Shown here: in pieces, positions 11,608 to 64,000 of the stretch
Numbering within the stretch: position 1 is the first letter of the stretch
How the letters are laid out: every line of letters starts with the position of its first letter
Virus record (IMG/VR): IMGVR_UViG_3300014502_000005
Coordinates: 12,237-76,236 of that record
From: a virus
Strand: one strand, 5' to 3'
DNA: 64,000 nt
Position numbers and translations under genes: made by a program
The notes under the pieces: model-generated
The model's database searches: none
Seen by the model: the letters and a program-made list of their open reading frames with translations, nothing else
What the model was told of the DNA's origin: nothing

Positions 11608-11625
11608 AAATTAAATAATTCCCGA

Positions 11626-45633: not shown

Positions 45634-45655
45634 GTATATATAGTAGTTATGTGGC
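45634..45655 (+). other. attI-like site A (diverged)
   Basis: GTATATATAGTAG|TTATGTGGC; GTTATGTGGC is complementary to GCCACATAAC at 46130. Confidence 0.6.
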
Positions 45656-45656
45656 A

Positions 45657-46091
45657 TTAAAAGAGCCACGCTTTGACAATTTCGTATAGGTTTAATTTTA
45701 AGTGATACGAATTAATTATCACGAAAACTCCAAATACAAGTCCGATAACTGAATTTACCCAATGTAATGCCGTATATGCTGGGCTAAATTTAAACAGCTT
45801 ACTTATTGGAGCTATTGCAATAAAATTAAAAGCAATTATCGCAATAAAAGCAACCCAATTAAAAGTTAATAAACCTGCAAACATCCATAAGGTAAATAGT
45901 AAACTTGGAAGTCCTCGACTAATTAAAACGTCTTTGTAATCTTGCGGATATTCATCCCACTTTTTGCCTTTGTTTTGCTTATTAAGCTCTTTAAATTTTT
46001 TAGATTTTTCAGTGTATTCAACTGGGCTTATTAGCCAAAGAACTTCATGTATTATAAAGCAAATTCCGATAAAATAAAAAATGTGTTTCAT
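45657..46091 (-). CDS. membrane protein, cassette A1
   Basis: about four hydrophobic segments; likely start MKHIF at 46091. Confidence 0.65.
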   Translation of the reverse strand: MKHIFYFIGICFIIHEVLWLISPVEYTEKSKKFKELNKQNKGKKWDEYPQDYKDVLISRGLPSLLFTLWMFAGLLTFNWVAFIAIIAFNFIAIAPISKLFKFSPAYTALHWVNSVIGLVFGVFVIINSYHLKLNLYEIVKAWLF

Positions 46092-46129
46092 TGTTATAAT
46101 TTTTAAGTTATTAATATTCAATAATTAAC

Positions 46130-46268
46130 GCCACATAACCCGCGGTCATACGCAAAACGGGGTTTCCGTTCTCGTTGGATAAGGTATCTGTTTGCAAAGT
46201 GTCGTTCATCGTATTTAGTTTATCTGTTAATAATCCCCGTTCAGCGCATACCGCCACCGTTATAGGGC
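46130..46268 (+). repeat. attC-like hairpin A1
   Basis: AAC-CC-GCGGT(C)ATACGCAAAACGGGG...CCCCGTTCAGCGCATACCGC-CACC-GTT. Confidence 0.8.
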
Positions 46269-46463
46269 ATTTAAAACAAGCTTCGGTTCAAGTTCAGTAA
46301 ATGCCTCGACTGTTATACCTTCTTTTAATTGCCATTCAGCATCATCATAGTATTCAATAGAATACACATAATTGTTATAAACTTTAATTATGCACATATA
46401 ATGAATACCATTGTAATTAGGCTCATTTTCTGGATATTTTTTAAAAACTTCATTTATATTCAT
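46260..46463 (-). CDS. hypothetical protein, cassette A2
   Basis: stop codon lies in the core GTTA. Confidence 0.6.
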   Translation of the reverse strand: MNINEVFKKYPENEPNYNGIHYMCIIKVYNNYVYSIEYYDDAEWQLKEGITVEAFTELEPKLVLNAL

Positions 46464-46518
46464 AACTTAAAAATAAACACCCTATAACAATAGGTCATAA
46501 AACAGCAGGGCGTATTTG

Positions 46519-46980
46519 CTATTCGTAACCTTTTGCATCTAATTGATGTAGTCTTTCTCGATATTTGTTTTTTAAATATCCTTTCTTTTGAAAAAACAAA
46601 TCCCAATTTGCTGTATATTTATGGTCTTCATTATAAGCTTCTCGATGATCAGAATCCCCATGGTCTAATAGCCTATGTTCCTCTGGAGACATAAGCATGA
46701 TGTTTTCTTCTTCTATTATAAATAGAGGGTAATTTTTTTTATCTAGTACATGCGCGAACAGCCAAATAAAAAAAGGTGTATTGTAGTATTTATCTAAAGG
46801 CCCTCCGCTTAATTCTGACACGTGAGGCCTAGTATTCCATATTTGGTCAAATAATGCTAATTGGCCTGTATTCTTAGGAAGGATGACTTTTTTAATTTTA
46901 GGCTTCCATTTGTAATGAAACTTACAAATACCATGACTGAAAACAGGATTGCTACAATTTGGATGAGTGCAAATTTTCAT
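46519..46980 (-). CDS. HNH-like nuclease-related protein
   Basis: N-terminal CxxxxC...CxxH; AHVL...ENIMLM...EH. Confidence 0.5.
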   Translation of the reverse strand: MKICTHPNCSNPVFSHGICKFHYKWKPKIKKVILPKNTGQLALFDQIWNTRPHVSELSGGPLDKYYNTPFFIWLFAHVLDKKNYPLFIIEEENIMLMSPEEHRLLDHGDSDHREAYNEDHKYTANWDLFFQKKGYLKNKYRERLHQLDAKGYE

Positions 46981-47306
46981 TTAATAGCTGGTCTATGATA
47001 ACAACTATAGGTAGGCATTAAATCTGATCCTAATCTTATTTCATGATATAAGATAGGGCTTATATTAGTAATTGTGATGTACTTATCTTTATCTATATTT
47101 AATATCCCCCACAAAATACCGTCTGAAGAGATTAAAAAATCGGATATATGTATTGGAGCATCTAGTTTTATTTTTAATGTATATATCCATTTTACTTCCG
47201 GAATTATTTTGAATATTTTACAAACTATACGTTGAATGAAAGTCAAGTTTAATACCTTAACTATACCTTCGGTATTTTGATAAGTTATTTTAAAAATGTT
47301 TTCCAT
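46977..47306 (-). CDS. hypothetical protein
   Basis: ORF in a tightly packed operon. Confidence 0.5.
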   Translation of the reverse strand: MENIFKITYQNTEGIVKVLNLTFIQRIVCKIFKIIPEVKWIYTLKIKLDAPIHISDFLISSDGILWGILNIDKDKYITITNISPILYHEIRLGSDLMPTYSCYHRPAIK

Positions 47307-47312
47307 AAATAT

Positions 47313-47603
47313 TTAATTTTTATTTATTGGTTTAAAATTATCAATGTTAATTTTATTTATGTTAATCAAATCGTCACTAATCAGTCCTTTTCTAAGTAAA
47401 AATTTAACTTTCCATTTAACAACATCTCTTTTAGCTTTACTTAATTTACTTGTCTTATTTTGAATCAATTTATATTCCTGAATGACATCGAGAACGTCTT
47501 TGTCTATTTCTTGTTTTTGTTCTATTTGTTCCTGTTTTGGTATCAACCAAAATACGGCGAATATTACGCCCATTGCCGTTATTAATAGTAGAAACGTCGT
47601 CAT
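47313..47603 (-). CDS. hypothetical membrane-anchored protein
   Basis: N-terminal hydrophobic segment. Confidence 0.55.
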   Translation of the reverse strand: MTTFLLLITAMGVIFAVFWLIPKQEQIEQKQEIDKDVLDVIQEYKLIQNKTSKLSKAKRDVVKWKVKFLLRKGLISDDLININKINIDNFKPINKN

Positions 47604-47605
47604 AT

Positions 47606-48009: not shown

Positions 48010-48077
48010 TGATTTTTATTCAAAGTTAAATAGTATGTGGGTAATAATAAAATAATAAGATATGTTGTGCAACACTT

Positions 48078-49741: not shown

Positions 49742-49760
49742 CTAGCAAAGGTATGTATTT

Positions 49761-50279: not shown

Positions 50280-50283
50280 AAAT

Positions 50284-50340
50284 TAATATTTAAGTTTTTG
50301 ATCACAAATCTTTAAAATTTAATCGTGCACAATATTAATA
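50284..50340 (-). pseudogene. remnant of integrase 5' end
   Basis: translates HD*ILKICDQKLKY versus HDEILKICIQKLKY in 54473-55279, at the same distance from the attI-like core. Confidence 0.7.
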
Positions 50341-50341
50341 T

Positions 50342-50385
50342 TTAAATAATTATATGTAAAATTTTATATATAATAGTTATGTGTA
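50342..50385 (+). other. attI-like site B
   Basis: TTAAATAATTATATGTAAAATTTTATATATAATAG|TT differs at 2 positions from 55282-55318. Confidence 0.75.
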
Positions 50386-50388
50386 ACC

Positions 50389-50787
50389 TTAAACGGCTAC
50401 CGTGGATAGTCTTTCCTTAATCTGATTTGAGTTCAATATTTCGTCAAATCTAATAATAGAATCAATCATCCATTCATAACCACAAAAACCAGCAGAGTTT
50501 TTTCTTCTTTTATTGGCTTCTTTGGCATCAACTTGTTCAATCCTAACATTTGCACCCCAACCATCACCAAAGTTATAATAATGGCTTTTACTTGGTGGAG
50601 TATTACCAATTTCTCGTCTGGTAAAAAAGCCTTCATAAATCGGACTTGTTTTAGCATCTTCCATTATTTTGTCAGCAGTTTTATTGTCGAACTTTCTAAT
50701 AACAAAATATTTGCGTTCTGCGCCTGTCCATTTACCATTCCAACTACCTACATTTGGCATCGTTAATTCAAAAGATAATGTTTTCAT
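50389..50787 (-). CDS. hypothetical protein, cassette B1
   Basis: MPNVGSWNGKW...YNFGDGWGA...GFCGYEWM. Confidence 0.7.
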   Translation of the reverse strand: MKTLSFELTMPNVGSWNGKWTGAERKYFVIRKFDNKTADKIMEDAKTSPIYEGFFTRREIGNTPPSKSHYYNFGDGWGANVRIEQVDAKEANKRRKNSAGFCGYEWMIDSIIRFDEILNSNQIKERLSTVAV

Positions 50788-50826
50788 TTTTATAGTTTTA
50801 AGTTATTGATAATCATAATAAAAGGC

Positions 50827-50962
50827 TACACATAACACGCAATATAGTGCATGTGGGCTGTATCGGTTATTGAAAGTTTCTACATTCTATTATCGTTTGT
50901 GGTGGTTTGATAGGTCGGTGCTATTAATCCCACACGACACCATATTGCCACCGTTAGCGGTT
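50827..50962 (+). repeat. attC-like hairpin B1
   Basis: AAC-AC-GCAATATAGTGCATGTGGG...CCCACACGACACCATATTGC-CACC-GTT. Confidence 0.8.
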
Positions 50963-51325
50963 ATTAAGCCAGCCATACACCAACCTGCGAAATTCTGCAT
51001 CTGATTGTGTGCATCGTAATTTTTGAACATCTAATTTAGATAAGTCTGGACAATAAGCTGTTATTAATGCTTTCCAGCAATCCCTATAAGTTTGAGCCTT
51101 TGCATGAAATTTTATAGAATGTTGTTCCAATTTAGCTGTATCTCCAAGTTCATCGTATTTTCGTTGAAGTCCCTGCCAACTATTAATAAGTTCTTCAACT
51201 GCTTTTATTCGCAATTGCTTATTTAGTTCATTTATTTGCTCAGAATAACTAAGTTCAGACGTATCACAATTAACATCCGCCTTAATAGGCGTGTACCTTG
51301 TATTTTTAAGTTTGTGCGTTCCCAT
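50954..51325 (-). CDS. hypothetical protein, cassette B2
   Basis: stop codon in core GTTA. Confidence 0.6.
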   Translation of the reverse strand: MGTHKLKNTRYTPIKADVNCDTSELSYSEQINELNKQLRIKAVEELINSWQGLQRKYDELGDTAKLEQHSIKFHAKAQTYRDCWKALITAYCPDLSKLDVQKLRCTQSDAEFRRLVYGWLNNR

Positions 51326-51333
51326 AAATTTAA

Positions 51334-51618
51334 TTATTTAAAATATTCACACGTTTTACAAAAGTTTTTACTCTTAACAAAGCGACTGCACGCAGATTTA
51401 TATGGCCAATTACAGATTTTTATTTTAGTAATATCTCCATTAAACCTCCAAATCTGCTGCATGTGGTCAAACCAAATCTGTATATTATCAACAGAATAAT
51501 TGTTTTTTACGCAATATTCATCTATTTCACTTATAGTTGGTTCTTTATCAGTCATGCCTTCAATCCACATCTCATGCGGTTGAGTTCTATATGTTACATT
51601 TTCATCTTGTATATTCAT
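51334..51618 (-). CDS. hypothetical protein, cassette B2 (two-gene cassette)
   Basis: likely start MNIQDE; Cys-rich C-terminus. Confidence 0.6.
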   Translation of the reverse strand: MNIQDENVTYRTQPHEMWIEGMTDKEPTISEIDEYCVKNNYSVDNIQIWFDHMQQIWRFNGDITKIKICNWPYKSACSRFVKSKNFCKTCEYFK

Positions 51619-51646
51619 AATATTTTGATTTAAAATAAATAATAAC

Positions 51647-51743
51647 AACCGCTAACACCGTATATAAAACATGGCTTGACAGGTTCGTGCTTACTTGAAA
51701 CATTCGAGCAAAGCCACGTTTCATATACGAACCGTTAGTTGCC
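51647..51743 (+). repeat. attC-like hairpin B2
   Basis: AAC-AC-CGTATATAAAACATGGCTT...AAGCCACGTTTCATATACG-AACC-GTT. Confidence 0.85.
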
Positions 51744-52196
51744 ATTTAAAGAAACGTATTCATCGAGAAGTTCCAAAGCAACTTTAAGTTTATCGTAACC
51801 TATTTTTGAAATTACTTTATTGATAAATAAATCACGATTTGTAAAGTCAGCACCTTGTTGGTATAAGTGAAAATTAATAGGATAAAACTCTTCATCATCA
51901 CAATCATTTTCATCTAAATAACCCCCAAACGTTTCGCATAAATATCTTGCGATTTCAACTGAATTTCCCCACATTCCTAAACTTAACCAAACCCCTGCAA
52001 TACCGTTTTCACGTTCACAACTATTTGTAAAAGATATAGCAATGTTTCTTTTGTCTTTACCATCTTCAAAATTTACATACATGAAATCAGGTGCAGTTGC
52101 TCTAATTTCAGCATTACCATATTTTACAGCAATAGCATCTTTTATTTGCTCAATTGTTGTTCCTTTGCGAAGAATCGCTTTTGTATCTACTCCCAT
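51735..52196 (-). CDS. hypothetical protein, cassette B3
   Basis: likely start MGVDTK; stop codon in core GTTA. Confidence 0.65.
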   Translation of the reverse strand: MGVDTKAILRKGTTIEQIKDAIAVKYGNAEIRATAPDFMYVNFEDGKDKRNIAISFTNSCERENGIAGVWLSLGMWGNSVEIARYLCETFGGYLDENDCDDEEFYPINFHLYQQGADFTNRDLFINKVISKIGYDKLKVALELLDEYVSLNGN

Positions 52197-52238
52197 TGTT
52201 TTGTATTTTAAATTATTAATAATCAAATAAATAAAAAC

Positions 52239-52374
52239 GGAAACTAACACGTGCTATATGCCAGTTGGGTTTTATCGGTATTTGAATCGTTCTGCATCTA
52301 ATTTAGTTTTGTAAAGTTTGACAAATACGTGCTTCGTAATCCCAACCGGACACATAGCACCACCGTTAGCAAAC
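52239..52374 (+). repeat. attC-like hairpin B3
   Basis: AAC-AC-GTGCTATATGCCAGTTGGG...CCCAACCGGACACATAGCAC-CACC-GTT. Confidence 0.8.
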
Positions 52375-52377
52375 ATA

Positions 52378-52665
52378 TTAAGAGCCGAGTAATTTGATAC
52401 GAATCCACTTATAAAATGTGGTTGTGTCGGGTAAATAAAATTTGCCTTCGGGATGTGGATTTTCTTTCCTATATAAATCTTCTAAAGGTTTTAGTTCTTT
52501 AGTTGGTCGGGTAAATAGATTTTGTATTTGGTCACAATTTTGCTCAGAGTATTCATCCATTGCGGATAATAAGTTTTTTGATAAATATTCATTTTCAAAC
52601 TTAAACACTTCAAAATCAAATCCATTTCTATCTAATATTTGTTCTTTAGTTCTAATTTTTGCCAT
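52378..52665 (-). CDS. hypothetical protein
   Basis: 95-aa ORF downstream of dnaB. Confidence 0.6.
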   Translation of the reverse strand: MAKIRTKEQILDRNGFDFEVFKFENEYLSKNLLSAMDEYSEQNCDQIQNLFTRPTKELKPLEDLYRKENPHPEGKFYLPDTTTFYKWIRIKLLGS

Positions 52666-52683
52666 AATGTAAATATTTAAAGA

Positions 52684-54105
52684 TTAGTTAAACTCACTAT
52701 TAGGTTCAATAAACGAATTCGGGTCATAGTATTTATCTGATTTGCTTAAATACTTGCTATCGTCTTTGTAATCATAAATTTTTGTAAGCGATTCGTTGTA
52801 TCCAAAATAAACAGAACCTGTTTTGCCTTCTTTGTTTTTAGCTATTATAAGTTCGCCACGGCCTTTTGTATTGACACCATTTTCGTCTTCTAAAATTCCG
52901 TACTGTTCTGGCCTATATAATAACAATACAATATCTGCATCACCTTCAATTTGTCCTGATTCTCTTAGGTCGCTCATCATTGGCCTTTTGTCACTCCTAG
53001 ACTCCACAGAACGATTAATTTGAGAAAGTATAATAACAGGAACGTCTAATTCCTTTGCCATATTTTTACACTCTCTGCTCATAGCGGCTACCTCTTGTTC
53101 TCGATTACTATTCTTAGTCATTCCCTCTCCTTTGGCCAATTGCAAATAGTCTATTAAAATCATTGAACATCGTCCTTTTTTCTTTAGTATCCTAGACTTG
53201 CTCTTTATATAACTAATAGATATAGTTGACTTGTCGTTTATTACTATATCATACTTAGACAATTCGTACCTAGCATTAGAAATCATTGTCCATTCATGAG
53301 GCTCCATATACCCCATTTTATAATTATCGTAACTTACCCCAGCCTCTCCGGCAAGAATCCTATCAGCGATTTTAAGTTTAGTAGTCTCTAATGAATATAA
53401 ATTGGGCACACCTCCATTCTTAGCACATTCTTTCATGATAGAAATCGCCATAGCTGTTTTGCCCATCGACGGCCTAGCGGCAAGTACTATAAGTTCTCCC
53501 CCCTGCCAACCTCCTGTATATTCATTTAATATAGTGAGAGGGGTTTTTATGCCAATAACTTGGCCTTTTTTTCTTAGAACTTCCCGTTCGGCAGCTTTAT
53601 CCTCTGCTTCCTTTAGTAGTTTTGCAAACGTATCATTATTACTAGTCTCACCTAATATTTTATTTATAGGTTCGTCTATAGAATTAATAGAAAAACTCAC
53701 TAAATCATCTATGTCAACAGAGTCATCGAAAGCTTTGTTCATTATTTCATGGCCAGCTTTTATTAATTCTCTTTGCAAGTACTTTTGTTTTATAACACAT
53801 GATAAAAAAAGAATATTATCACTTATCTGGCTTTTTGCTAATAATGAACCTACGTAATATCGGCCTCCTACATCTTCTAGTTCGTTGTTTTTATTTAATT
53901 GTTCACAAGTTGTTAATAAATCTACAGGGTTATTTTTTGAGTTTAAATCTAATATTGCTTTAAATATTTTTTGGGTACAATCTTTGTAAAAATATTCTGG
54001 CTTCAGATCTATAGCTTCGTCTAAAAGAGAAGAGTCATAGATTATGTCTCCCAATATAGACTCTTCTATTTCTATGCACGAAGGAGGAACTTTATTTAGA
54101 ATCAT
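52684..54105 (-). CDS. dnaB: replicative DNA helicase
   Basis: AARPSMGKT Walker A; IDYLQL, LSQINR, DLRESGQIE and IAKNK motifs. Confidence 0.95.
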   Translation of the reverse strand: MILNKVPPSCIEIEESILGDIIYDSSLLDEAIDLKPEYFYKDCTQKIFKAILDLNSKNNPVDLLTTCEQLNKNNELEDVGGRYYVGSLLAKSQISDNILFLSCVIKQKYLQRELIKAGHEIMNKAFDDSVDIDDLVSFSINSIDEPINKILGETSNNDTFAKLLKEAEDKAAEREVLRKKGQVIGIKTPLTILNEYTGGWQGGELIVLAARPSMGKTAMAISIMKECAKNGGVPNLYSLETTKLKIADRILAGEAGVSYDNYKMGYMEPHEWTMISNARYELSKYDIVINDKSTISISYIKSKSRILKKKGRCSMILIDYLQLAKGEGMTKNSNREQEVAAMSRECKNMAKELDVPVIILSQINRSVESRSDKRPMMSDLRESGQIEGDADIVLLLYRPEQYGILEDENGVNTKGRGELIIAKNKEGKTGSVYFGYNESLTKIYDYKDDSKYLSKSDKYYDPNSFIEPNSEFN

Positions 54106-54466
54106 AATTTAGTCTTGAGGTTAGTAGATTAGTGGCAATTTTTTTTTGAACAGGAATTTGTTGTCGTCCGTAATTATTATCTTGTCTTTCCCAGGTTCGT
54201 ACTGCCGCTTTCCAGTCTTTCATTTTATTTCTACCGATCATCCAATTTTTTGCTTGGTAAAAGTCAACCCATTTTTCAGGATCGACATTGTTCGCCCTTT
54301 CTTTACAATAAACTGTCACTTCATCTATAGTAGGAGTAATAAAAATAGTCCTTGCTTTATATATATTCGGTTCGGGGAAAACTATATCACAATTGCATTC
54401 TACAACCATGGGAGAGTGTATTTTTTTGCAAACTGGACATTGCCAACCTTGAGGAATTTTTTTCAT
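54092..54466 (-). CDS. putative replication initiator/replisome organiser
   Basis: PTIDEV..YC.ER...FY...W..G...MKDWKAAVRTWE; directly upstream of dnaB. Confidence 0.6.
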   Translation of the reverse strand: MKKIPQGWQCPVCKKIHSPMVVECNCDIVFPEPNIYKARTIFITPTIDEVTVYCKERANNVDPEKWVDFYQAKNWMIGRNKMKDWKAAVRTWERQDNNYGRQQIPVQKKIATNLLTSRLNYDSK

Positions 54467-54472
54467 AGTCTA

Positions 54473-55279
54473 TTATATTGGTAACTGTATTTTGGATAAT
54501 GCCATATTAGACACATGTGTATATATTTCAGTAGTCTTTGAACTACTATGCCCTAATATTTTTTGAATGTATCGAAGGTCAACACCCGATTCTAATAAAG
54601 CAGTTGCAGAACTATGTCTTAATAAATGAAAATGATATTCTTTCCCTAAATAATATTTAACTAACTTATTACAACTTTCAGATGAATATTTAATTTTAAA
54701 TTGCCCATTAAACAAATATTCTTTTGGCTTAAAGGCTCTATAATATTCCCTGAATAAATTTAAAATATTTTGTGAAAGTGGAACTATTCTATCCTTTCTT
54801 CCTTTAGCTTGTCTTATTGTGATTAACATTCGCTTTGAGTCAATATCAATAATTTTAAGATTAATCACTTCACTAACACGTAATCCAACTGAATATGCAA
54901 GAGATAGTATTGATTTGTGTTTTAGATTTTGAATTTTGCATATCTTAGACAATAAAAATTCTTTTTCAATAACTTGTGGCAGATGTTTTTCTTTTCTTGG
55001 TCGCTCAAATGAAACTTTATCGTATTTTTTATTTAAAGTTTTTTCATATAAAAATTTGATTGCATTAATAATTTGATTTTGTTGGCTTATGGAAGAAAAG
55101 TTATAATTATTCAAATAAGATTTAAAATCATTTGCTATTAAATGTTGTGGATATTTATTAATATTAATTAAAAACTTTTTTATATAATGAATATAAATTT
55201 CAATTGTTCTTTCGGAATAATTGAAATATTTAAGCTTTTGAATGCAAATCTTTAAAATTTCATCATGCTTAGTTTTCAT
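54473..55279 (-). CDS. tyrosine recombinase (integron-integrase-like)
   Basis: NYSERTIEIY SAM-like N-domain; GLRVSE, KGRKDR, HLLRHS, LGHSS and TTEIYTHV give a full R-K-H-R-H-Y set. Confidence 0.9.
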   Translation of the reverse strand: MKTKHDEILKICIQKLKYFNYSERTIEIYIHYIKKFLININKYPQHLIANDFKSYLNNYNFSSISQQNQIINAIKFLYEKTLNKKYDKVSFERPRKEKHLPQVIEKEFLLSKICKIQNLKHKSILSLAYSVGLRVSEVINLKIIDIDSKRMLITIRQAKGRKDRIVPLSQNILNLFREYYRAFKPKEYLFNGQFKIKYSSESCNKLVKYYLGKEYHFHLLRHSSATALLESGVDLRYIQKILGHSSSKTTEIYTHVSNMALSKIQLPI

Positions 55280-55281
55280 AA

Positions 55282-55325
55282 TTAAATAATTATGTGTCAA
55301 ATTTTATATATAATAGTTATAGGCA
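55282..55325 (+). other. attI-like site C (adjacent to integrase)
   Basis: ATTTTATATATAATAG|TTATAGGCA about 37 nt upstream of the integrase ATG, in the intI/attI arrangement. Confidence 0.8.
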
Positions 55326-55328
55326 ATG

Positions 55329-55565
55329 CTAAGAACCGCCTTCGAGTTTATTTATCCTCGCTTCAAGCGCTTGTATGGTTTGCCATAAATTATGAATTTC
55401 TTCTTCATTTGATGGTCGTTGCTGTTCATGCAATTGTCTTTCTAAATCGTTTATTTTCTTTTGATTAAAACGATTGTCAATTTCATTACATTGCGACATT
55501 TCAGCATTTATCGCATCGTTTAAGTTCGGATAATAAGTTCCGTATAAATCATATCCACCTGCCAT
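55329..55565 (-). CDS. hypothetical coiled-coil protein, cassette C1
   Basis: fills the cassette. Confidence 0.6.
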   Translation of the reverse strand: MAGGYDLYGTYYPNLNDAINAEMSQCNEIDNRFNQKKINDLERQLHEQQRPSNEEEIHNLWQTIQALEARINKLEGGS

Positions 55566-55587
55566 AATTTATTGATTTAAAAAGCAC

Positions 55588-55723
55588 TGCCTATAACAAT
55601 ATGTATAGTTAATGGCGGGTGCTGTGGTTAATATTAAGTTTCTACTTTTCATTTACTTTTGTGCGTTTTGATAGGTTCGTGGTATTCAATCCGCCACTAA
55701 CCATACATTTAACGTTATGCGTA
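55588..55723 (+). repeat. attC-like hairpin C1
   Basis: AAC..ATGTATAGTTAATGGCGG...CCGCCACTAACCATACAT..GTT. Confidence 0.8.
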
Positions 55724-55724
55724 A

Positions 55725-55940
55725 TTAAACGCACGTTCCATTTTTGCAGTCTTTATAAGTTGCAAATTTTCTCGCTTTAGTTTCCTCAATTGATTCTAAT
55801 TTTACCGTAAACCCTTCGTTTGTGAGTTCAGTAAATTCTTTTTCGGTTTGCTTACCAATATAATCAATGTGAGAAGCTAATATAAATCCTTTGCATTTTT
55901 CGCAAATAGCTACTTTTGAAACTTTGCCTTCTGTTCTCAT
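55725..55940 (-). CDS. hypothetical protein, cassette C2
   Basis: CxxC motif. Confidence 0.6.
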   Translation of the reverse strand: MRTEGKVSKVAICEKCKGFILASHIDYIGKQTEKEFTELTNEGFTVKLESIEETKARKFATYKDCKNGTCV

Positions 55941-56167
55941 TTGTCGTTATCTCCTTTAATTAATTCTAATTGTCCTACGTAAATATCGCCACAATCAGTT
56001 TTAAAGTCTATTTTATGTTTTTTCAAAATAGTTCTAATACTAAATGGGCATAAGCATTCGTCTGGTTCTTTTACTTTTTTAGAAACATCAAAACCAAAAT
56101 GTTCTTTAAATTGCCTTGGGGTTGTTATTTCTTTTTCACCTCTATTTATTACTACAATTTTACACAT
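55937..56167 (-). CDS. hypothetical protein, cassette C2 (two-gene cassette)
   Basis: ATGA overlap with its partner gene. Confidence 0.6.
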   Translation of the reverse strand: MCKIVVINRGEKEITTPRQFKEHFGFDVSKKVKEPDECLCPFSIRTILKKHKIDFKTDCGDIYVGQLELIKGDNDK

Positions 56168-56191
56168 ATTATTGAGTATTAATAATTAACA

Positions 56192-56288
56192 TACGCATAA
56201 CACCGTATATAAAACATGGCTTGACAGGTTCGTGCTTACTTGAAACTGTGAAACAAAGCCACGTTTCATATACGAACCGTTATAGCCA
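56192..56288 (+). repeat. attC-like hairpin C2
   Basis: near-identical to B2 except in an 8-nt loop stretch and the outer core extensions. Confidence 0.85.
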
Positions 56289-56501
56289 ATTTAAGGAATG
56301 AGCCTTTCTATCAGCATTTTTTTGATTAATTGACCATAAGCTATTTTCACCGTAAAAGAATTTCTTCAATCCTTTTGCTCTATTAAATTCGTCTTCGTCT
56401 CTTACTTTAATTTCAGGTTCTGGCAAATCCATTATGTTTATCATTGGTGTTGCCATCGCCGCAAGTGCAGTTAACATGGCTAATTTTCTCATTTTTGACA
56501 T
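56280..56501 (-). CDS. hypothetical protein, cassette C3
   Basis: stop codon in core GTTA. Confidence 0.6.
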   Translation of the reverse strand: MSKMRKLAMLTALAAMATPMINIMDLPEPEIKVRDEDEFNRAKGLKKFFYGENSLWSINQKNADRKAHSLNWL

Positions 56502-56531
56502 ATATTTTAATTTAAGTTGTTAATAATAAAC

Positions 56532-56667
56532 TGGCTATAACAAGCGGTTTACGCAACCACCGTTTTATCTGTAATTTTAAAGTTTTCAGCATTTTATTAA
56601 GTTTTTAACGTGTGATAAATTCGTTATTATAATCGGTGGCTTCGCAAACCGCCGACCGTTAGTTTAT
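56532..56667 (+). repeat. attC-like hairpin C3
   Basis: AAC-AA-GCGGTTTACGCAACCACCG...CGGTGGCTTCGCAAACCGC-CGACC-GTT. Confidence 0.8.
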
Positions 56668-56982
56668 TCTTTTCCTTATCTCTTTAATTTCAATATCAGG
56701 ATATAATTTAAATACTTCTTTTTTTACATGCGTAATCTCAATGCCATTATTAAAAATAAGCCCATAATCATGAACAATCTTTCTTACTTCGAATAAACTG
56801 TTAACTGGCCTTTCAATCATATTGAAATATTGAACCCTGGTTTTGATTCCTATTTTTTCGCAAAGATCAAGAAGGGTAAAATACGAATCGTAGCTAATTG
56901 CAGGTACTTTAGTCCGGACCATTTCTTGTTTTAATAACTCCTGTTTTTCTTCTTTAGTTAGCTTGGAAAATGATGTTCTCAT
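56659..56982 (-). CDS. hypothetical protein
   Basis: last gene of the recombination operon; stop codon in core GTTA. Confidence 0.6.
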   Translation of the reverse strand: MRTSFSKLTKEEKQELLKQEMVRTKVPAISYDSYFTLLDLCEKIGIKTRVQYFNMIERPVNSLFEVRKIVHDYGLIFNNGIEITHVKKEVFKLYPDIEIKEIRKRIN

Positions 56983-57407
56983 GGTTGTTTATTTTGCATT
57001 GATGAGTAATTTGCATTTCTATTCATCTCTTTAGCTTGAGATATAAAAGTCCTCATTAATTCCATTTGATACTTACACTCTTTGTCTATCTCTGTAATCC
57101 AATTGACTAAGTAATTGTAATCCTTGCAGGCCGAATCAACAAGCTTATTTATAGTAGCCGGGGTTAAATGTTCTTGCAATTGTTTTTTTAGCAAATCCAT
57201 AATTTCGCTTTTAAGCAATTCGTCTTTATGATATTTACTATCCGCAAGCATTTTCCCAGTCCTAGCCATGAGACCGCCAAGCTCAGCAGCCCTATCGGAA
57301 CATTCTTTGCCTGAATCTACGTTATATCCTATTTTAAGATATTCGTGTACTTCTTTAGCTTCTTCAAAGAGTTCTTCGGGCAAAGTTATATTGTCGGGTT
57401 TAAACAT
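56979..57407 (-). CDS. hypothetical helical protein of the recombination module
   Basis: coiled-coil-like; operon context. Confidence 0.55.
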   Translation of the reverse strand: MFKPDNITLPEELFEEAKEVHEYLKIGYNVDSGKECSDRAAELGGLMARTGKMLADSKYHKDELLKSEIMDLLKKQLQEHLTPATINKLVDSACKDYNYLVNWITEIDKECKYQMELMRTFISQAKEMNRNANYSSMQNKQP

Positions 57408-57409
57408 AA

Positions 57410-57631
57410 TTATAAGCTATTTATTAGTTCTTCTTTACTATGGAAGCAATGTCTTTCTTCGACAATTTTACAGTCGTAGCCGCCATTTATATTTACATTT
57501 AAATATAGGTCTGTGCCAGTTAACCCCTTTCTAAATGTTACTTTAATAGAATCAATAGGAAATTCAGAAGCCTTGCCATCTAAAATAGTCCAAACTTTAT
57601 CAGACACGTTAAATTTAGTTTCTGTTTTCAT
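57410..57631 (-). CDS. hypothetical protein
   Basis: ETKFNVSDKVW...F.SKEELINSL motif recalled from Bacteroidota phages. Confidence 0.65.
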   Translation of the reverse strand: MKTETKFNVSDKVWTILDGKASEFPIDSIKVTFRKGLTGTDLYLNVNINGGYDCKIVEERHCFHSKEELINSL

Positions 57632-58614
57632 TGGTTCGATATTAGTTTATTAAATTCGATTAAGTCATTTAATTCTTTTGACGTTTCAGTCCACTCTTCT
57701 TCCAAAGTCTTACTAATTATTTCCGGTTTTTCGCCAGCTTTAGTAGTTCCTTGAAACGATTTACTAATAGGCGAGGGAAAGTACGACGCAGATGAGTTTA
57801 AGCAAATACCAAGCCTCTTTGCGGCTTCTAATGCTATTTTATCAGAATCCTCTTTATTCAAATACTTAAATTCAAATGTTGGGGACTTTGATTCATTCCA
57901 GTCTTTTGTCCTTACGATAGCTGTATTATCTGCTTGAAAATCATAGGTGGCATTCCACATGAAATTCTCACATGCAATTTGTTCTAATTGATGTCCTGAA
58001 ATTTGTGAAGAAGTTTTGATATTGATAGTCGTATTTACAAAAGCTCCTTTTTCGGTAGGACGGCACGAACATACAAGGTCTATTGGGGTAGCTATTTTCA
58101 TAGTTTCCCAAATGCACGGAGTTTCAATAGCATATATTTCATGAACACGTTCGTGAATAAACTGAAGCAAAGAAGCTACATGTTTACAATAATCGTATGA
58201 CATGTTCTTAATAGTTTTCATGTCAGGTTCTATGTTTTTAGCCTTATAGGCATTTATAAAATATTCATACGACCTATCCTTTTCTTCGCCCCAATCTATA
58301 CAGCCTTTTTCTTTAATTGTAACTAATGACATATGCAATAATGACCCAAAATCAGCTGTCATGTCAACGAAATCTTTAGTGTTCTTTTCTCCAAAACTAT
58401 CTATCATCGAATTTCTCCAGCCAGTTAAACGCTTAGCATCAGGATCGCCTTTAAAAGTGGCTGCGGACAATGCCCCGGTCAATCCTGAGTAATACTGAAA
58501 CGGCTGTTCTTGAATGTAAATCCTAAGCCCGTTAAAATTGACACGGAACATTTTAAGGAACGTGCCAATTTTTAACAAGTTTTCAACTTTCTCGATATTG
58601 GTTATTGATCCCAT
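57628..58614 (-). CDS. putative PD-(D/E)XK exonuclease-like protein
   Basis: GSLLH, AIE, PIDLV, INIKTS and QLEQ resemble a Cas4/lambda-exonuclease-like motif set. Confidence 0.5.
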   Translation of the reverse strand: MGSITNIEKVENLLKIGTFLKMFRVNFNGLRIYIQEQPFQYYSGLTGALSAATFKGDPDAKRLTGWRNSMIDSFGEKNTKDFVDMTADFGSLLHMSLVTIKEKGCIDWGEEKDRSYEYFINAYKAKNIEPDMKTIKNMSYDYCKHVASLLQFIHERVHEIYAIETPCIWETMKIATPIDLVCSCRPTEKGAFVNTTINIKTSSQISGHQLEQIACENFMWNATYDFQADNTAIVRTKDWNESKSPTFEFKYLNKEDSDKIALEAAKRLGICLNSSASYFPSPISKSFQGTTKAGEKPEIISKTLEEEWTETSKELNDLIEFNKLISNQ

Positions 58615-58642
58615 TATAATTTATTGATTTATAGGTGTTTGC

Positions 58643-59320
58643 TCAAAAAGGTAAATCGTCTGGCTCATTACTAATGTCAGGGGCGGCGTCTTCTATGTGA
58701 GACATATTTGGCTCCGCATTTTTACTGTTAAAGTGATTAGCAAAAAATTCATCAAATTGCGCTTTTAAAAACTTCTTAACTTTAATAAAGTATATCTTAG
58801 CGTCATCATCATCCTTAAAGTTAACGCCTTCTCCTGAAGGGAATTTATGCAATAGTTTCCAGGTTCCATCGGCTTGTTTTTGTTCATAATAAGAGCTTAT
58901 TTTTTGACCATCTTGCTCTATCGATAGTCCGGCCCTCCTTTTGCCTAATTTGTCCACGAAGTCATAGGCCGTTAGCTTTACTTTATTTGTCATATCTAAG
59001 TTTGGCAACTTCTTTAGGAAGTCGATGCAATTGCGATTAGTTTCCGATAAAGATAACTGATAAGTATCAGCAACGTCATTTAATGTTATTTCAAAAGAAT
59101 TGCCATACTGCTTATCCTCTTTATAAAAAATATTTTCAATAGTCCCACTTACAAAGTCGTGCTCTATCGCCCATGAGTCGGCTCCAGCTTGGGTTTGTCT
59201 TTTTACTGCGCCAGGCGTGTCTTTTTCCACCTTTTGCCTGTTTTCCAACGACTTCTGCCTTATCTTACCAAATCCAACTGTTAAATAAATCTTTGATGTT
59301 CCATTGTGTGATCCTAGCAT
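58643..59320 (-). CDS. putative single-stranded DNA-binding protein
   Basis: acidic C-terminal tail ending PDDLPF; next to the exonuclease. Confidence 0.55.
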   Translation of the reverse strand: MLGSHNGTSKIYLTVGFGKIRQKSLENRQKVEKDTPGAVKRQTQAGADSWAIEHDFVSGTIENIFYKEDKQYGNSFEITLNDVADTYQLSLSETNRNCIDFLKKLPNLDMTNKVKLTAYDFVDKLGKRRAGLSIEQDGQKISSYYEQKQADGTWKLLHKFPSGEGVNFKDDDDAKIYFIKVKKFLKAQFDEFFANHFNSKNAEPNMSHIEDAAPDISNEPDDLPF

Positions 59321-59358
59321 AATATTAAGTATTAAATTATTAATTATAATAAATTCTC

Positions 59359-59463
59359 TTACTCACCATCGGGGTCATATTCTTTTTCTTCCTCCTCGAC
59401 TTCATCTTTATCCCACCAAGGAGCATCTAAGTCGTAAAAAGAACCGATAGGATAGCTGTCCAT
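59359..59463 (-). CDS. 34-aa acidic peptide (absent from the ORF track)
   Basis: MDSYPIGSFYDLDAPWWDKDEVEEEEKEYDPDGE; TAATTTTG motif at 59485-59492 upstream. Confidence 0.5.
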   Translation of the reverse strand: MDSYPIGSFYDLDAPWWDKDEVEEEEKEYDPDGE

Positions 59464-59489
59464 AAATAGCAATTTTTAACAATTCAAAA

Positions 59490-59996
59490 TTACCTAATTT
59501 TACCCAACTTTTTCATTTTACGTATATGTTGTGTAACATCTTTCTTCGCCATATTTAATAATTTTTTATTAGTTATGGCACGGTCTTTAAATTGCTTAAA
59601 ATCTTTAGTTTTTCTTTTTATCAAAGATTGGAATACGCAAATGAAATAATCGAATTTTTCTTTATTTAAAGAGTAGCGGGCCATAAAGCTGTTATTGTGG
59701 GACTCAAACTTTATGTTGCTGGTATTGCTCACAAAAACAAAAAAGCCTTTTTCTGCCAATGATTTCATTGTATTATTTGCAGTGGTTTTATAAGCCATTT
59801 TATTTAAATGCTTATAAGAGATAGCCGCCAAATCCTTTTTAGTAAAAATATTATTAAAATTTTTATCGTTTTGCAAGCAAACAACGGCTAGTAAGTAGTT
59901 TAATTCTACATTACTTATTTTAAAAAAGAAATGTAAATCTGACAGTACAGATTCTGATATAAGATAATTTTCTGTGAAATTAAGTGGTGTTTTCAT
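59490..59996 (-). CDS. hypothetical basic protein, possibly winged-helix
   Basis: MKSLAEKGFF segment; Lys-rich. Confidence 0.45.
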   Translation of the reverse strand: MKTPLNFTENYLISESVLSDLHFFFKISNVELNYLLAVVCLQNDKNFNNIFTKKDLAAISYKHLNKMAYKTTANNTMKSLAEKGFFVFVSNTSNIKFESHNNSFMARYSLNKEKFDYFICVFQSLIKRKTKDFKQFKDRAITNKKLLNMAKKDVTQHIRKMKKLGKIR

Positions 59997-59999
59997 AGT

Positions 60000-60230
60000 T
60001 TATTCATTATCAATTATAAATTCAACTTTATCTATTTTTAACCGTTCTGTTTTTCTTTTTGCAGCTGCCGGATAAGATATTTTTTCACTTATCGAATAAT
60101 TGGTTAAAGTTTTTAACCCTAAAATAATAGAAATATCTTGAACAATTTTAATAAGTTATATATTTTCAACCTCACAATTATGTACACAAAACATTAATCT
60201 GTCGTATATTAATTCGCTTCTTGTCATCAT
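60000..60230 (-). pseudogene. small gene interrupted by an in-frame TAA
   Basis: MMTRSELIYDRLMFCVHNCEVENI*LIKIVQD...VEFIIDNE; internal stop at 60156-60158. Confidence 0.5.
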
Positions 60231-60250
60231 GGTTTAAAATTTTAAACTGT

Positions 60251-60272
60251 TGTAATAAGATAGTTAGCACCT
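60251..60272 (+). other. attI-like site D (diverged)
   Basis: TAATAAGATAG|TTAGCACCT; complementary to AGGTGCTAAC at 60488. Confidence 0.5.
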
Positions 60273-60274
60273 AT

Positions 60275-60556
60275 TTAATGAATCCAGCTCGTTAAATCGT
60301 GCCTAACCGATTGAAATGCTTTTACCATTCCATATTCTTTTGTGCATTTTTTACACCGATAATTAATTTCCTCTGTTGAAACTTCGCTATCTGGTACAAA
60401 GCATTCACTTGCTCCGCCTTTTTTCTTAAACTCTTGGCTATTTATATATCTCCCACATTTGTCGCACCGAATATCATAATAAAGAACAGGTGCTAACACA
60501 CGGTCATCAGCAATATCTGCCTTGCCTTGTGGATTGTTTTCTGCTAATTCTGTCAT
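60275..60556 (-). CDS. putative Zn-finger protein, cassette D1; starts inside the hairpin loop
   Basis: two CxxC motifs; the N-terminal ~23 codons are encoded by the att site. Confidence 0.65.
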   Translation of the reverse strand: MTELAENNPQGKADIADDRVLAPVLYYDIRCDKCGRYINSQEFKKKGGASECFVPDSEVSTEEINYRCKKCTKEYGMVKAFQSVRHDLTSWIH

Positions 60557-60615
60557 TTGTTTTTCAATTTAAATTTGTGAAGCAAATACTGCTGATACCG
60601 TCATCGTTAGCGTTC
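60488..60615 (+). repeat. attC-like hairpin D1
   Basis: AAC-AC-ACGGT(C)ATCAGCAATATCTGC...GCAAATACTGCTGATACCGT-CATC-GTT. Confidence 0.8.
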
Positions 60616-60618
60616 ATA

Positions 60619-61158
60619 CTAAGACCGTGCGTAACTTGCAAATTCCGAACCTCTATCACAAAATGATTTTACCATTGAGCAAACTAAGCCAAATGACATT
60701 CCAGAGTGTCCTTGTCCTTCAATAATTCCTTTTGCAACTTCCAATTCACAACCAGCATTCAATTCTTTTACTATGTCCAGTGTTGCTTTTAATTCCATAC
60801 CTCTGTATAAATCTCCCAATCTTATGGGAACGCATTCTCCCCAAGTTTCGTGGTATTTTTCGGCAAGTATATCTTTCCCTTTTTCAATCCATTCTTTTGT
60901 TAATTCTGGAATGGCTTCTTTGTGTTTTCTTTCTTCATCTTTGTATCGGTCATTGTCCGCTTTCATTTCAGCATCAAATTCCGCTTTAGTTTTCCCTGTA
61001 ATTTTTTTAAAAGCAAAATCCATATCATCAACATCGGAGTATAGTATTTGCCCGTTAAATGTGCCACAAACTAAATCTTTGTGTCTTTTAAGTTCTTTTA
61101 CTGCTTCTTCAATGGTTTCGCCAGCACTAAATTCAATTTCTCTGTAATTTGTTTTCAT
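60619..61158 (-). CDS. hypothetical phage protein, cassette D2
   Basis: RLGDLYRGMEL...QGHSGMSF motif. Confidence 0.7.
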   Translation of the reverse strand: MKTNYREIEFSAGETIEEAVKELKRHKDLVCGTFNGQILYSDVDDMDFAFKKITGKTKAEFDAEMKADNDRYKDEERKHKEAIPELTKEWIEKGKDILAEKYHETWGECVPIRLGDLYRGMELKATLDIVKELNAGCELEVAKGIIEGQGHSGMSFGLVCSMVKSFCDRGSEFASYARS

Positions 61159-61200
61159 ATTTTGATATTTAAAAGTTTAAAATTCGATTAATAAAAAGGC

Positions 61201-61300
61201 AGCCGATAACACGCAATAAAGCCCATTTGGCTGCGTAGTTTGGTGGTAACTTGACAAGTTTGTACAAGCCAAACGTGCCTTATTGCCACCGTTATAAGCC
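61201..61300 (+). repeat. attC-like hairpin D2
   Basis: AAC-AC-GCAATAAAGCCCATTTGGCT...AGCCAAACGTGCCTTATTGC-CACC-GTT. Confidence 0.8.
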
Positions 61301-61525
61301 ATTTAAAGAAGCCCGATTGTCCTTCTCAGATTTATCAATAGTTACTCCAATTATCTCATAAAATTCTTTATACTGAAAGGTTTCAATATACTTTTTAGCA
61401 TCTTTCTTCCTGAAAAATAACAATCCTGCAAAAACTTTATCTCCATCATAAAAAGTAATTTCTGTGTCAAATATCATGTTTTGCCAAATTGATTTCCCAT
61501 TGCGTTTTATTGCAAATGCTCTCAT
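61292..61525 (-). CDS. hypothetical protein, cassette D3
   Basis: stop codon in core GTTA. Confidence 0.6.
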   Translation of the reverse strand: MRAFAIKRNGKSIWQNMIFDTEITFYDGDKVFAGLLFFRKKDAKKYIETFQYKEFYEIIGVTIDKSEKDNRASLNGL

Positions 61526-61607
61526 AATAAAAATAATTAAAACGGCTTATAACACAGTGTATAGCCAATTAAAGCTGAGTATATCGCCATTGTTCATAAC
61601 GTTAACG

Positions 61608-62168: not shown

Positions 62169-62274
62169 AATTAATTTTTTAGTTAGTACTATTTTGTCGG
62201 TTCAAAATTACTTAAATTAAACTATAATTAATTATTGTTGTATATGTTTTAAAACATTGCTTTGTTTTGGATAA

Positions 62275-62478
62275 TTAACTGTAAAACAAGATTGCCGAAT
62301 CGTCGAAAGGTATCGGAGTAATTAATTGCTGATGCCAATGGGTAGATAGATCTAAAAAACATTGGTAATCTAGTTCTGATAACGTCCCCTTGGCCTTACT
62401 TTGTATTTCCCTACGCTCTTGTCTATTATTAGCTTTGCGGTAGCTAAAGAATAATTCGTCAATAATTGCCTGGTTCAT
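62275..62478 (-). CDS. hypothetical protein
   Basis: 67-aa ORF. Confidence 0.5.
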   Translation of the reverse strand: MNQAIIDELFFSYRKANNRQERREIQSKAKGTLSELDYQCFLDLSTHWHQQLITPIPFDDSAILFYS

Positions 62479-62493
62479 TTTGTTTATTTTTAG

Positions 62494-62667
62494 TTATTGA
62501 TTTAAATATGAAAATTTTATTTTATTGCCTTCTATGAATGTAAATAAAAAATGCTCTTGCGTTTTTTTTATTTGTGATCGGAGTATTTTGAAATATTTCA
62601 TTCTCACAAGATACTTTCTAAAAATAACGCTACCAGTAGAAGGGTCGTAAGTTGTCAAATGTTCCAT
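62494..62667 (-). CDS. hypothetical protein (57 aa, absent from the ORF track)
   Basis: MEHLTTYDPSTG...YLNQ fills the gap between neighbouring features. Confidence 0.45.
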   Translation of the reverse strand: MEHLTTYDPSTGSVIFRKYLVRMKYFKILRSQIKKTQEHFLFTFIEGNKIKFSYLNQ

Positions 62668-62746
62668 ATTTTGCGTATTTAAGGTTTAATTACAAATCTT
62701 TAAAAATATATCTTTTATAATATTGACTTTAAAGTAATTGTAATAT

Positions 62747-62773
62747 AAATTTTATATATAATAGTTAGCACCA
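62747..62773 (+). other. attI-like site E
   Basis: AAATTTTATATATAATAG|TT is identical to the cores of sites B and C. Confidence 0.75.
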
Positions 62774-63226
62774 ATTCAAAAAACATCGGTGCGTTTTTTC
62801 AAATGCTTGTTGAACTTTAATCATTACCTCATTTGGCGTATTCCCGAATATATTGCAATTACCATAACCTAAATTAGCATCGTATATATAAGGGAAATTA
62901 CAACAGAATTTATCAACTGTTGAAGGCACGGAAGCACTAGCGCACCCCTTTTGATTTATGTAAGCAAATGGAACTAATATTGATTTGCCAAAGTTTTTAT
63001 ATTCTGGCATTACTTTCGTTTTTACTCTCAAATATCCTCGTATTTGCCATCTACCAATATTATCAGGAGTTAAATCTATTTCATCATTAATTGTTACCTC
63101 TTTACATGCCTGTAAATAATGATAACGCCAAATAATGACAGGGCCAGAACTGGTGCTAACACCGCATAAAACCAATAAAGGTTTCAGTGCTTTTCGAAGG
63201 TTTGTAATTCTATTTAAGTGTTTCAT
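62765..63226 (-). CDS. hypothetical protein, cassette E1; starts inside the hairpin loop
   Basis: ATG at 63226 (MKHLNR); stop codon in the attI core. Confidence 0.6.
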   Translation of the reverse strand: MKHLNRITNLRKALKPLLVLCGVSTSSGPVIIWRYHYLQACKEVTINDEIDLTPDNIGRWQIRGYLRVKTKVMPEYKNFGKSILVPFAYINQKGCASASVPSTVDKFCCNFPYIYDANLGYGNCNIFGNTPNEVMIKVQQAFEKTHRCFLNWC

Positions 63227-63285
63227 GTATTGATAATTTAGTGTTTCAAAATCCTTTACTTGTCTTATGCAAACCGTTACAGGCA
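63151..63285 (+). repeat. attC-like hairpin E1
   Basis: AAC-AC-CGCATAAAACCAATAAAGG...CCTTTACTTGTCTTATGCA-AACC-GTT. Confidence 0.75.
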
Positions 63286-63288
63286 ATA

Positions 63289-64000
63289 CTACCACACTGC
63301 ATATTTGAGAATGTGTGCAATAATATCAACTGTCCAACCATCGCCTATGCAATCATACGCCTCATCGTAATTTAGTACGGAAGTATAGCCAATAGGCAAT
63401 GTTTGTAATTTTTCAAGTTCATTTTGTGAAAGATAGCGATATATGCCGTCTTTCAATAAATAATTTTCGTTCCATTTTCTATGTCCATTTGCTGTTAAGC
63501 ATCCACTTTTAGGGCATGGATTTACTCTTGTGTATCCTTTCTCAATGCTTTTTTTGCCGCTTTCATTTGTAAGCCAATCAATTCTACATTTATCAGCAAT
63601 TTGTCCATTAAAGTCAAAAACATCTTTTGTTATTATCTTTTTGTCATTTGGTTGCTTTATTCCTGGAATATTCGTCCAATAATATCTTGGTCTATTTTGT
63701 GCAGAAACAAGCCTGCTATTTATTGAAATTGGAATTACGCCTAATGTTTCTGTAATTATTTTAGTTGCTTCTTTATTTCCATGCGTGTTTTCAAAAAGAA
63801 AATAAACGTCTGGGTTTTCAATTTGTATTTCTCTCAGAACCCTAACAGCTTCATAAAACAATTTACTTTCATCATGGTCTAATCCTTCTTGGTTTTTATT
63901 TAATCTTGAAATACCCTTGCAAGGCGAACCAGCTAAAAATAAATGAATGTCATCTTCAATAAATCTTACGTGTGAAGGTGCTAAATCAACTTCAATCCCA
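63289..64000 (-). CDS. C5 cytosine DNA methyltransferase (5' end outside the window)
   Basis: the frame stays open to the window edge and includes AGSPC (motif IV); also FEN, QNRPR, LQTLP and IGDGW. Confidence 0.85.
   Translation of the reverse strand, partial: GIEVDLAPSHVRFIEDDIHLFLAGSPCKGISRLNKNQEGLDHDESKLFYEAVRVLREIQIENPDVYFLFENTHGNKEATKIITETLGVIPISINSRLVSAQNRPRYYWTNIPGIKQPNDKKIITKDVFDFNGQIADKCRIDWLTNESGKKSIEKGYTRVNPCPKSGCLTANGHRKWNENYLLKDGIYRYLSQNELEKLQTLPIGYTSVLNYDEAYDCIGDGWTVDIIAHILKYAVW

Follow-up and report, generated by a model that had tools for sequence, protein, structure and literature searches.

A probable integron-like gene-cassette system with an Xer-type recombinase on a presumed phage of Bacteroidota

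Complementarity between the two ends of a unit is the hallmark of integron cassettes, in which the attC site re-forms on circularisation and crossover occurs at G|TT. The VCR sites of the Vibrio cholerae chromosomal integron measure 123-126 nt, and in the 'inverted integrase' integrons of the Treponema denticola type the recombinase and the cassette genes are co-oriented. Integrase-less clusters of attC sites (CALINs) have been described in virulent phages, including Polaribacter phage P12002L (Qi et al. 2023; PMC9892861); there, IntI1 brought about recombination at G|TT between attI1 and five of six tested phage attC sites, with one of the two P12002L sites among the five. The I2 helix insertion of the integron integrase IntI has been tied to single-strand attC recombination (Escudero et al. 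2020; PMC7790495), and a survey with IntegronFinder 2.0 reported almost no integrons in Bacteroidetes (PMC9024848). The DNA analysed here is a stretch of 64,000 nt (the window), bases 12237-76236 of a 76,236-bp virus record in IMG/VR, from a presumed phage of Bacteroidota. It very probably carries an integron-like site-specific gene-cassette system, with five arrays (A to E) of genes separated by hairpins and an Xer-type tyrosine recombinase that lacks the I2 insertion. A literature search returned no description of such an insert-less Xer-type recombinase serving phage hairpin cassettes.

Reading of the intergenic gaps, together with an energy scan, locates ten imperfect hairpins bounded by AAC and GTT in the window (Table 1). 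They fall into two size classes (83, 83 and 86 nt; 114 to 125 nt) and are accompanied by two truncated hairpins, or half-sites, for which no partner arm lies within several kb; a first-pass annotation made from the letters alone had reported the same numbers and sizes (83-86 and 114-125 nt). A scan for TAAC...GTTA with an arm energy of at most -15 kcal/mol finds nothing in the 12.2 kb that precede the window and, in the remaining 45 kb of the window itself, only two weak matches (-15.3 and -16.9). On the gene-sense (minus) strand, a cassette reads C-hairpin-GTTA-x-leader-ORF(s)-x'-TAA, where ORF stands for open reading frame and x and x' for the two ends of the unit. On this strand, arrays of one to three cassettes end at an attI-like site, TAA|C-TATTATATATAAAATTT followed by about 80 more conserved nt. 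The five sites, at which the arrays start in plus-strand coordinates, are AT-rich and form no hairpin, and three of them have AAATTTTATATATAATAG|TTA exactly in common. One of them, C0 in array C, runs directly into the recombinase gene, whose ATG lies 37 nt from the crossover point; both the five non-hairpin start sites and the abutment of one on the 5' end of a tyrosine recombinase had been recognised in the first pass. Every cassette ORF is encoded on the minus strand, facing the attI-like site and the recombinase. Pfam and PHROGs searches with ten cassette ORFs gave only weak matches or matches of unknown function. The hairpins B2 and C2 are nearly identical, and the cassette genes adjoining them are unrelated by BLASTP.

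The ends of the units carry the signature of circularising cassettes. The 10 nt from each GTT, of which six positions are variable, were compared with the 10 nt ending at each AAC. Eleven of the 12 pairs of ends belonging to the same unit score 9-10 of 10, a hairpin's own two flanks agree at no more than 4-8 positions, and a score of 9 is reached by 5 of 143 non-cognate pairs, so that the agreement is far beyond chance. Thus, complementarity runs across the unit and not across the hairpin, as first noticed by a model reading the letters.

The hairpins represent conserved structure rather than conserved sequence. Across 28 hairpins of eight genomes, pairing between the arms extends over 16-28 bp, with a mean of 21, and the two arms are mutually only 29% identical. 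G.T pairs make up 75 of 592 arm pairs; since the opposite strand would carry C.A mismatches at these places, this is consistent with a better-folding sense strand, and the arms of the gene-sense strand are indeed about 8-10 kcal/mol more stable. An RNAalifold consensus of 25 hairpins of the long class, drawn from the window and seven further loci, comprises 14 pairs, 11 of them with compensatory double changes; RNAalifold on ungapped, arm-only mini-hairpins gave no consensus owing to register shifts. One G.U (G.T) pair is near-invariant (23 of the 25 long hairpins; alignment A4, columns 22-110) next to pairs that covary freely, and is a candidate recognition or strand-choice feature. Conserved words in the loops of the long hairpins are GGATT..., ...TATCAAA... 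and ...AAACC. The base of a typical stem is asymmetric: on the 5' side AAC is followed by 4-5 unpaired nt, and on the 3' side only 1-2 precede GTT. B1, B3, C3 and A1 have one bulged base, T or A, on the 5' (cleaved) arm; B2, C1 and C2 have none.

Whole cassettes are gained and lost exactly at AA|C in relatives of the phage. By tblastn, 39%-identical integrases are found in the cultured Polaribacter phages Freya_1 to Freya_10, with genomes of 43,978 to 48,920 bp in which the distance of the integrase from the record start varies; the paper describing these phages gives the genome size range only (PMC8776804). When record ends are joined and seven isolates are compared, the flanks are 99.5-100% identical and the arrays occur in six variants. 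The junctions of all differences between them lie at ...AA|C when read on the strand of the integrase, which is G|TT on the other strand. Relative to Freya_10, deletions of one to many cassettes between a hairpin and the attI-like site (AA|C-ACCCCTATAAC) are seen in Freya_1, _2, _5 and _9; Freya_8 lacks one 902-bp cassette between two hairpin cores (hairpin x hairpin), and Freya_6 has a different, novel cassette at the same point. A covariance model built from relatives of the window recognises a Freya hairpin (E = 1e-8). In Freya_10 (L013/L010) and Freya_6, some hairpins enclose in their loop complete ORFs or the beginning of one; 190-400 nt then separate the arms, a spacing far in excess of known integron attC loop sizes.

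A closer clade (70% identity) is represented by four contigs, L118 to L121, from four samples. The recombinase gene and 51 nt upstream of it are common to all four (100% identical in L118-L120, 88% in L121), and the similarity ends exactly at AAC|TATAATATAGC, behind four different x'-AAC ends. In L118:5301-6139, L119:1024-1862 and L120:3231-4069, the recombinase with its attI-like half-site is 100% identical, downstream DNA about 1.1 kb beyond the gene is only 92-93% identical and no match is found in between. The recombinase-attI module itself seems to move between phage backbones. L118 and L121, with 98.7% identical upstream flanks, differ by one extra unit of 1,337 bp in L118 (L118:3964-5300), which consists of a mini-hairpin, then GTTGTACCCC, an ORF and GGGGTACAAC. 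This cassette adjoins attI, and its protein, which starts with MVKGFRYRVYPNKEQEQQLNQ, may resemble the N-terminus of TnpB/OrfB (IS200/IS605). Gain or loss of units exactly at G|TT, which the first-pass annotation had proposed as a check, is thus found beside the recombinase gene both in the Freya isolates and between L118 and L121. Collectively, natural variants mark the crossover position. Insertion at the attI-like site is seen in these relatives and would take place in the same way in the phage of the window.

Arrays of this kind accompany the recombinase across clades. In L001-L004, as in most metagenome relatives with enough upstream DNA, arrays of 83-90-nt and 119-130-nt hairpins obeying the end rule lie upstream of the recombinase and are co-oriented with it. 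L113 has six hairpins with chain scores of 9, 10, 10, 10 and 10; further examples are L123, L151, L158 and L163. In Bacteroidota genomes, recombinases about 40% identical adjoin such arrays, which are located at the 3' side in the chromosomal relatives L070, L055 and L039 and, in some relatives with arrays on that side, also in the opposite orientation. A covariance model of the ~123-nt hairpin (R1), built from hairpins of the window and of relatives (phage and Bacteroidota loci) and used at E <= 1e-6, matches 78 of 151 sampled genomes of the phylum of Chryseobacterium lacus (Bacteroidota), often in same-strand clusters spanning 5-20 kb and with at least 27 copies in C. lacus itself; 0 of 121 genomes were matched in a control phylum, that of Desulfitobacterium. 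The scan of Bacteroidota, likewise proposed in the first pass, therefore places the phage sites in a hairpin family widespread in the presumed host phylum. As a separate observation, the chromosome of Desulfitobacterium sp. Sab5 (L030, Bacillota) contains at 9719-12155 four AAC...GTT hairpins of 67-71 nt, 3' of a 43%-identical insert-less recombinase. Their end-rule scores are 9, 10 and 10 and they give no match to the long-hairpin model R1; related systems may exist outside Bacteroidota.

By its sequence, the recombinase is not an IntI and is Xer/XerA-like. All its catalytic motifs (GLRVSE, KGRKDR, HLLRHS, GHSS and IYTH) are intact, and they do not vary among 14 homologues. Its top NCBIfam matches are to archaeal XerA (XerA_Arch; 170 bits, cut-off 220) and, split into two stretches, to the integron integrase TIGR02249 (156.5 bits, cut-off 265); it reaches 132 bits with XerD (cut-off 330) and 130 bits with XerC (cut-off 335). 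The protein aligns contiguously to XerA structures (4a8e, 5hxy). With VchIntIA (2a3v), residues 20-179 and 213-267 align, separated by 33 residues where IntI has 81; therefore, the IntI-specific insertion (I2 helix) is absent. Xer recombinases (XerA 4a8e and 5hxy, XerC/D) thus share with the phage enzyme the best full-length matches, the two-domain architecture and the catalytic residues. They differ in that the phage enzyme stays below every NCBIfam equivalog cut-off, short of equivalog-level similarity to the Xer/dif enzymes XerA, XerC and XerD, and serves cassette arrays rather than a single dif site. Homologues are numerous (>7,800 at E < 1e-20), and >100 of them, with 65-82% identity, are encoded on contigs from about 1 kb to over 800 kb.

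Four of the array start sites bear traces of a common origin. B0 and E0, and more weakly A0, the start sites of arrays B, E and A, share about 100 nt with C0. Contained in the shared block are the recombinase's initial codons, interrupted by a stop in B0, and the word ACAAATCTTTAAAA, which is retained even in the diverged A0; the platform was therefore copied within the genome. This word may serve for accessory binding or belong to a promoter of the gene starting just past each block. An exact search of viral contigs for the attI-like 21-mer gave two matches, both unrelated and by chance.

The locus is close to integrons in several respects. It has imperfect attC-type AAC...GTT hairpins with a variable loop, unit boundaries inside the GTT core with crossover at G|TT, a hybrid outer box that pairs the cassette ends across the unit, a non-hairpin attI-like site beside the 5' end of a tyrosine recombinase, one preferred folding strand, and orphan cargo together with a DNA methylase; the enzyme is related to IntI in its N-terminal and catalytic parts. 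It departs from them in others. An IntI-clade integrase with the I2 insertion is absent, and the ORFs do not read away from attI from the promoter Pc; they occupy the 'bottom' strand, and transcription runs toward attI and the recombinase, which leaves no Pc logic. The internal loop has unequal sides, with 7-8 unpaired nt against 4-5, and one genome holds five attI-like sites. The placement of bulged bases may differ as well: where a single one occurs, it sits on the cleaved arm, and the extrahelical bases that set strand choice in integrons are on the opposite arm. The integron-like reading of the first-pass annotation is supported by the cassette grammar and by the AA|C junctions in relatives, with the qualification that the recombinase is not an IntI and that the orientation of the ORFs is inverted with respect to att polarity. 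In integrons of the Treponema denticola type the array is at the 3' side of intI, whereas the phage array is at the 5' side, upstream of the recombinase. By description, CALINs (at least two attC sites with no IntI nearby) would be matched by arrays A, B, D and E. The phage CALINs described earlier also have attC-like sites between small genes and methylases; they differ in that neither a dedicated phage recombinase, nor an attI, nor cassette turnover between isolates was reported there (PMC9892861).

We infer that the recombinase catalyses cassette exchange on a single-stranded substrate, with replicative resolution, and that the system is active in the phage at present. The enzyme would recognise the folded sense strand of a hairpin, which presents a duplex-like site, and cleave it between A and C of the 5' AAC (AA|C). 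Strand exchange would follow with the attI-like duplex, leading to insertion or excision, or with another hairpin, leading to excision; by analogy with integrons, replication would then resolve the junction. In the circular cassette, x' and x would pair and extend the base of the hairpin, which would explain why the ends of a unit are complementary. A single recombinase would serve the five attI-like sites in trans.

Material from the phage's own population consists of Logan contigs, which are unable to show rare circles; no circular junction of the kind proposed in the first pass (56279 joined to 55715) is listed among them, which speaks neither for nor against circles. In a run sequenced to 76x depth, contig ends fall at 50950-79, 55711-17 and 60605-09, the places where B1, C1 and D1 have their GTT, and at loose ends different sequences continue after the GTTA of B2 and the GTTATG of C1. 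Several observations count against an active integron-like system. For the phage itself, contigs being the only material, no circle, recombination event or empty site is seen. The unit from D1 to D2 (D2) breaks the end rule with a score of 6, and the arrays contain the two half-sites. The recombinase is devoid of the I2-helix insertion that the literature deems necessary (PMC7790495), and Polaribacter phage P12002L has hairpins of the same grammar, shorter and flanked by x'AAC-G... and ...TGTT-x, with no homologous recombinase. In one metagenome contig, the A1 ORF with its x'-TAAC is followed by a hairpin of the B2 type (46135 joined to 51653); this joint falls within TAAC and places the exchange at the hairpin end opposite to that predicted. 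In another joint (52223 to 61194), the B3 ORF is connected at its 5' end to the D2 leader and hairpin. The two joints suggest non-canonical exchanges (not at AA|C), or homologous recombination in the leaders.

Part of these observations would be expected if the arrays were relics, assembled elsewhere (for instance in host chromosomal arrays or in an ancestral phage) and now static, with a recombinase devoted to another job such as lysogenic integration or dimer resolution. Half-sites, the rule-breaking unit, satellite attI-like sites with decayed stubs of the recombinase 5' end, a hairpin family common in Bacteroidota chromosomes and the lack of an event in the contigs of the phage itself all agree with it. 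This explanation is nevertheless unlikely, given that the adjacency of recombinase and attI is conserved from 39% to 100% protein identity, that the same module (100% in L118-L120, 88% in L121) stands beside four different cassettes, and that contigs of the own population branch at GTT cores.

The Xer-like nature of an enzyme without I2 helix, the short conserved words (TAAC/GTTA) around the cores and the variant exchanged at the other core of a hairpin would suit a double-strand exchange at duplex AAC/GTT cores, similar to that proposed for the pdif modules of Acinetobacter plasmids, with an incidental hairpin potential. A duplex-binding enzyme would not select for pairing over ~21 bp at 29% arm identity, for compensatory changes or for a G.T bias confined to one strand, and the sites do not show the alternating orientation typical of pdif; such an exchange is quite improbable. 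It is hardly credible, finally, that the hairpins act at the RNA level only, as signals for mRNA processing, stability or termination, with mosaicism arising by homologous recombination at hairpins. The better-folding strand is the mRNA-sense strand and the hairpins are 5' of ORFs, as this would require, but the hairpins are unlike intrinsic terminators and have no terminator-like tail, scans for terminators and sigma-70 promoters gave no excess over shuffles, and a search of Rfam with the hairpins found no family match. Their arms are too divergent for homologous recombination, and neither the end complementarity across units nor the AA|C junctions with a non-hairpin site would be explained. 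A secondary RNA role of the hairpins may exist beside their part in the integron-like cassette system.

Genes for the large terminase subunit and the portal protein are on the plus strand of the window, and a minus-strand arm from 45.6 kb encodes a DnaB-type helicase, the tyrosine recombinase and a C5 DNA methylase. DNA of the phage is present in metagenomes from permafrost and peat, and a second contig, of 76,591 bp, encodes an identical recombinase. Bases 1-104 of the record (L009:1-104), upstream of the window, lie inside a long-class hairpin on the plus strand (R1, E = 2.6e-9) that is cut at its 5' end and inverted with respect to all ten hairpins of the window. As the record starts in a hairpin and its 3' end falls inside the methylase cassette of array E, the breaks in the assembly lie within arrays, leaving array E incomplete, and the phage genome probably exceeds the 76,236 bp of the record by some margin. 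No lysogeny module was found in the phage parts examined, and megablast of the array region against a collection of cultured phages gave no match. A search for relatives based on DnaB returned one backbone relative, L024 (IMGVR_UViG_3300037277_000110; DnaB 46% identical, a 328-aa protein 68%), the remaining DnaB relatives being distant. Neither hairpins nor the recombinase are present in the 16 kb of L024 examined; the lineage of the phage appears to have acquired the cassette platform as an accessory.

Table 1. Elements of the cassette system in the window (hairpins in + strand coordinates, from AAC to GTT)
Feature	Coordinates	Strand	Description
Array A start site	45634-45656		attI-like, diverged; ...TATATATAGTAG|TTATGTGGCA; G of GTT at 45646
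Cassette A1	45646-46261	-	orphan ORF 45657-46121 and hairpin A1
Hairpin A1	46137-46261		125 nt
Cassette A2	46259-46518	-	ORF 46260-46463 and truncated half-hairpin
Half-site, array A	about 46479-46518		truncated hairpin
Array B start	50284-50388		attI-like block of about 100 nt with stub of recombinase 5' end; crossover G at 50376
Array B	50376-52367	-	three cassettes, hairpins B1, B2, B3
Hairpin B1	50834-50955		122 nt
Hairpin B2	51654-51736		83 nt
Hairpin B3	52246-52367		122 nt
Xer-type tyrosine recombinase	54473-55279	-	268 aa; Phage_integrase and SAM-like N-terminal domains
Array C attI-like site (C0)	55224-55325		overlaps recombinase start; crossover G at 55316
Array C	55316-56660	-	three cassettes, hairpins C1, C2, C3
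Hairpin C1	55595-55716		122 nt
Hairpin C2	56199-56281		83 nt
Hairpin C3	56539-56660		122 nt
Array D start site	60250-60274		diverged; ...AATAAGATAG|TTAGCACCT; G at 60263
Array D	60263-61607	-	cassettes with hairpins D1 and D2, and a half-site
Hairpin D1	60495-60608		114 nt
Hairpin D2	61208-61293		86 nt
Half-site, array D	about 61544-61607		truncated hairpin
Array E attI-like block	62668-62767		G at 62764
Array E	62764-64000	-	cassette E1, then E2, a C5 cytosine DNA methyltransferase cut by the record end
Hairpin E1	63158-63278		121 nt

In contrast with the view that ties folded-site recombination to the I2 helix (PMC7790495), the full cassette grammar here accompanies an insert-less enzyme of the Xer type. 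The five attI-like copies in one phage indicate that such a platform can be multiplied within a genome. With slightly better than even confidence, it is tempting to propose that Bacteroidota and their phages share a phylum-wide, integron-like cassette system run by Xer-type recombinases without I2 helix, in which folded-hairpin recombination may be either ancestral or independently evolved. A phage of lytic type could then use several attI copies simultaneously to swap early accessory genes, including anti-restriction methylases, with the cassette pool of its hosts. Should the enzyme be confirmed, the origin of integrons would become directly testable, a large hidden pool of cassettes would come to light in a major phylum and its phages, and a mechanism would be at hand for the fast turnover of early or anti-defence genes in phages.

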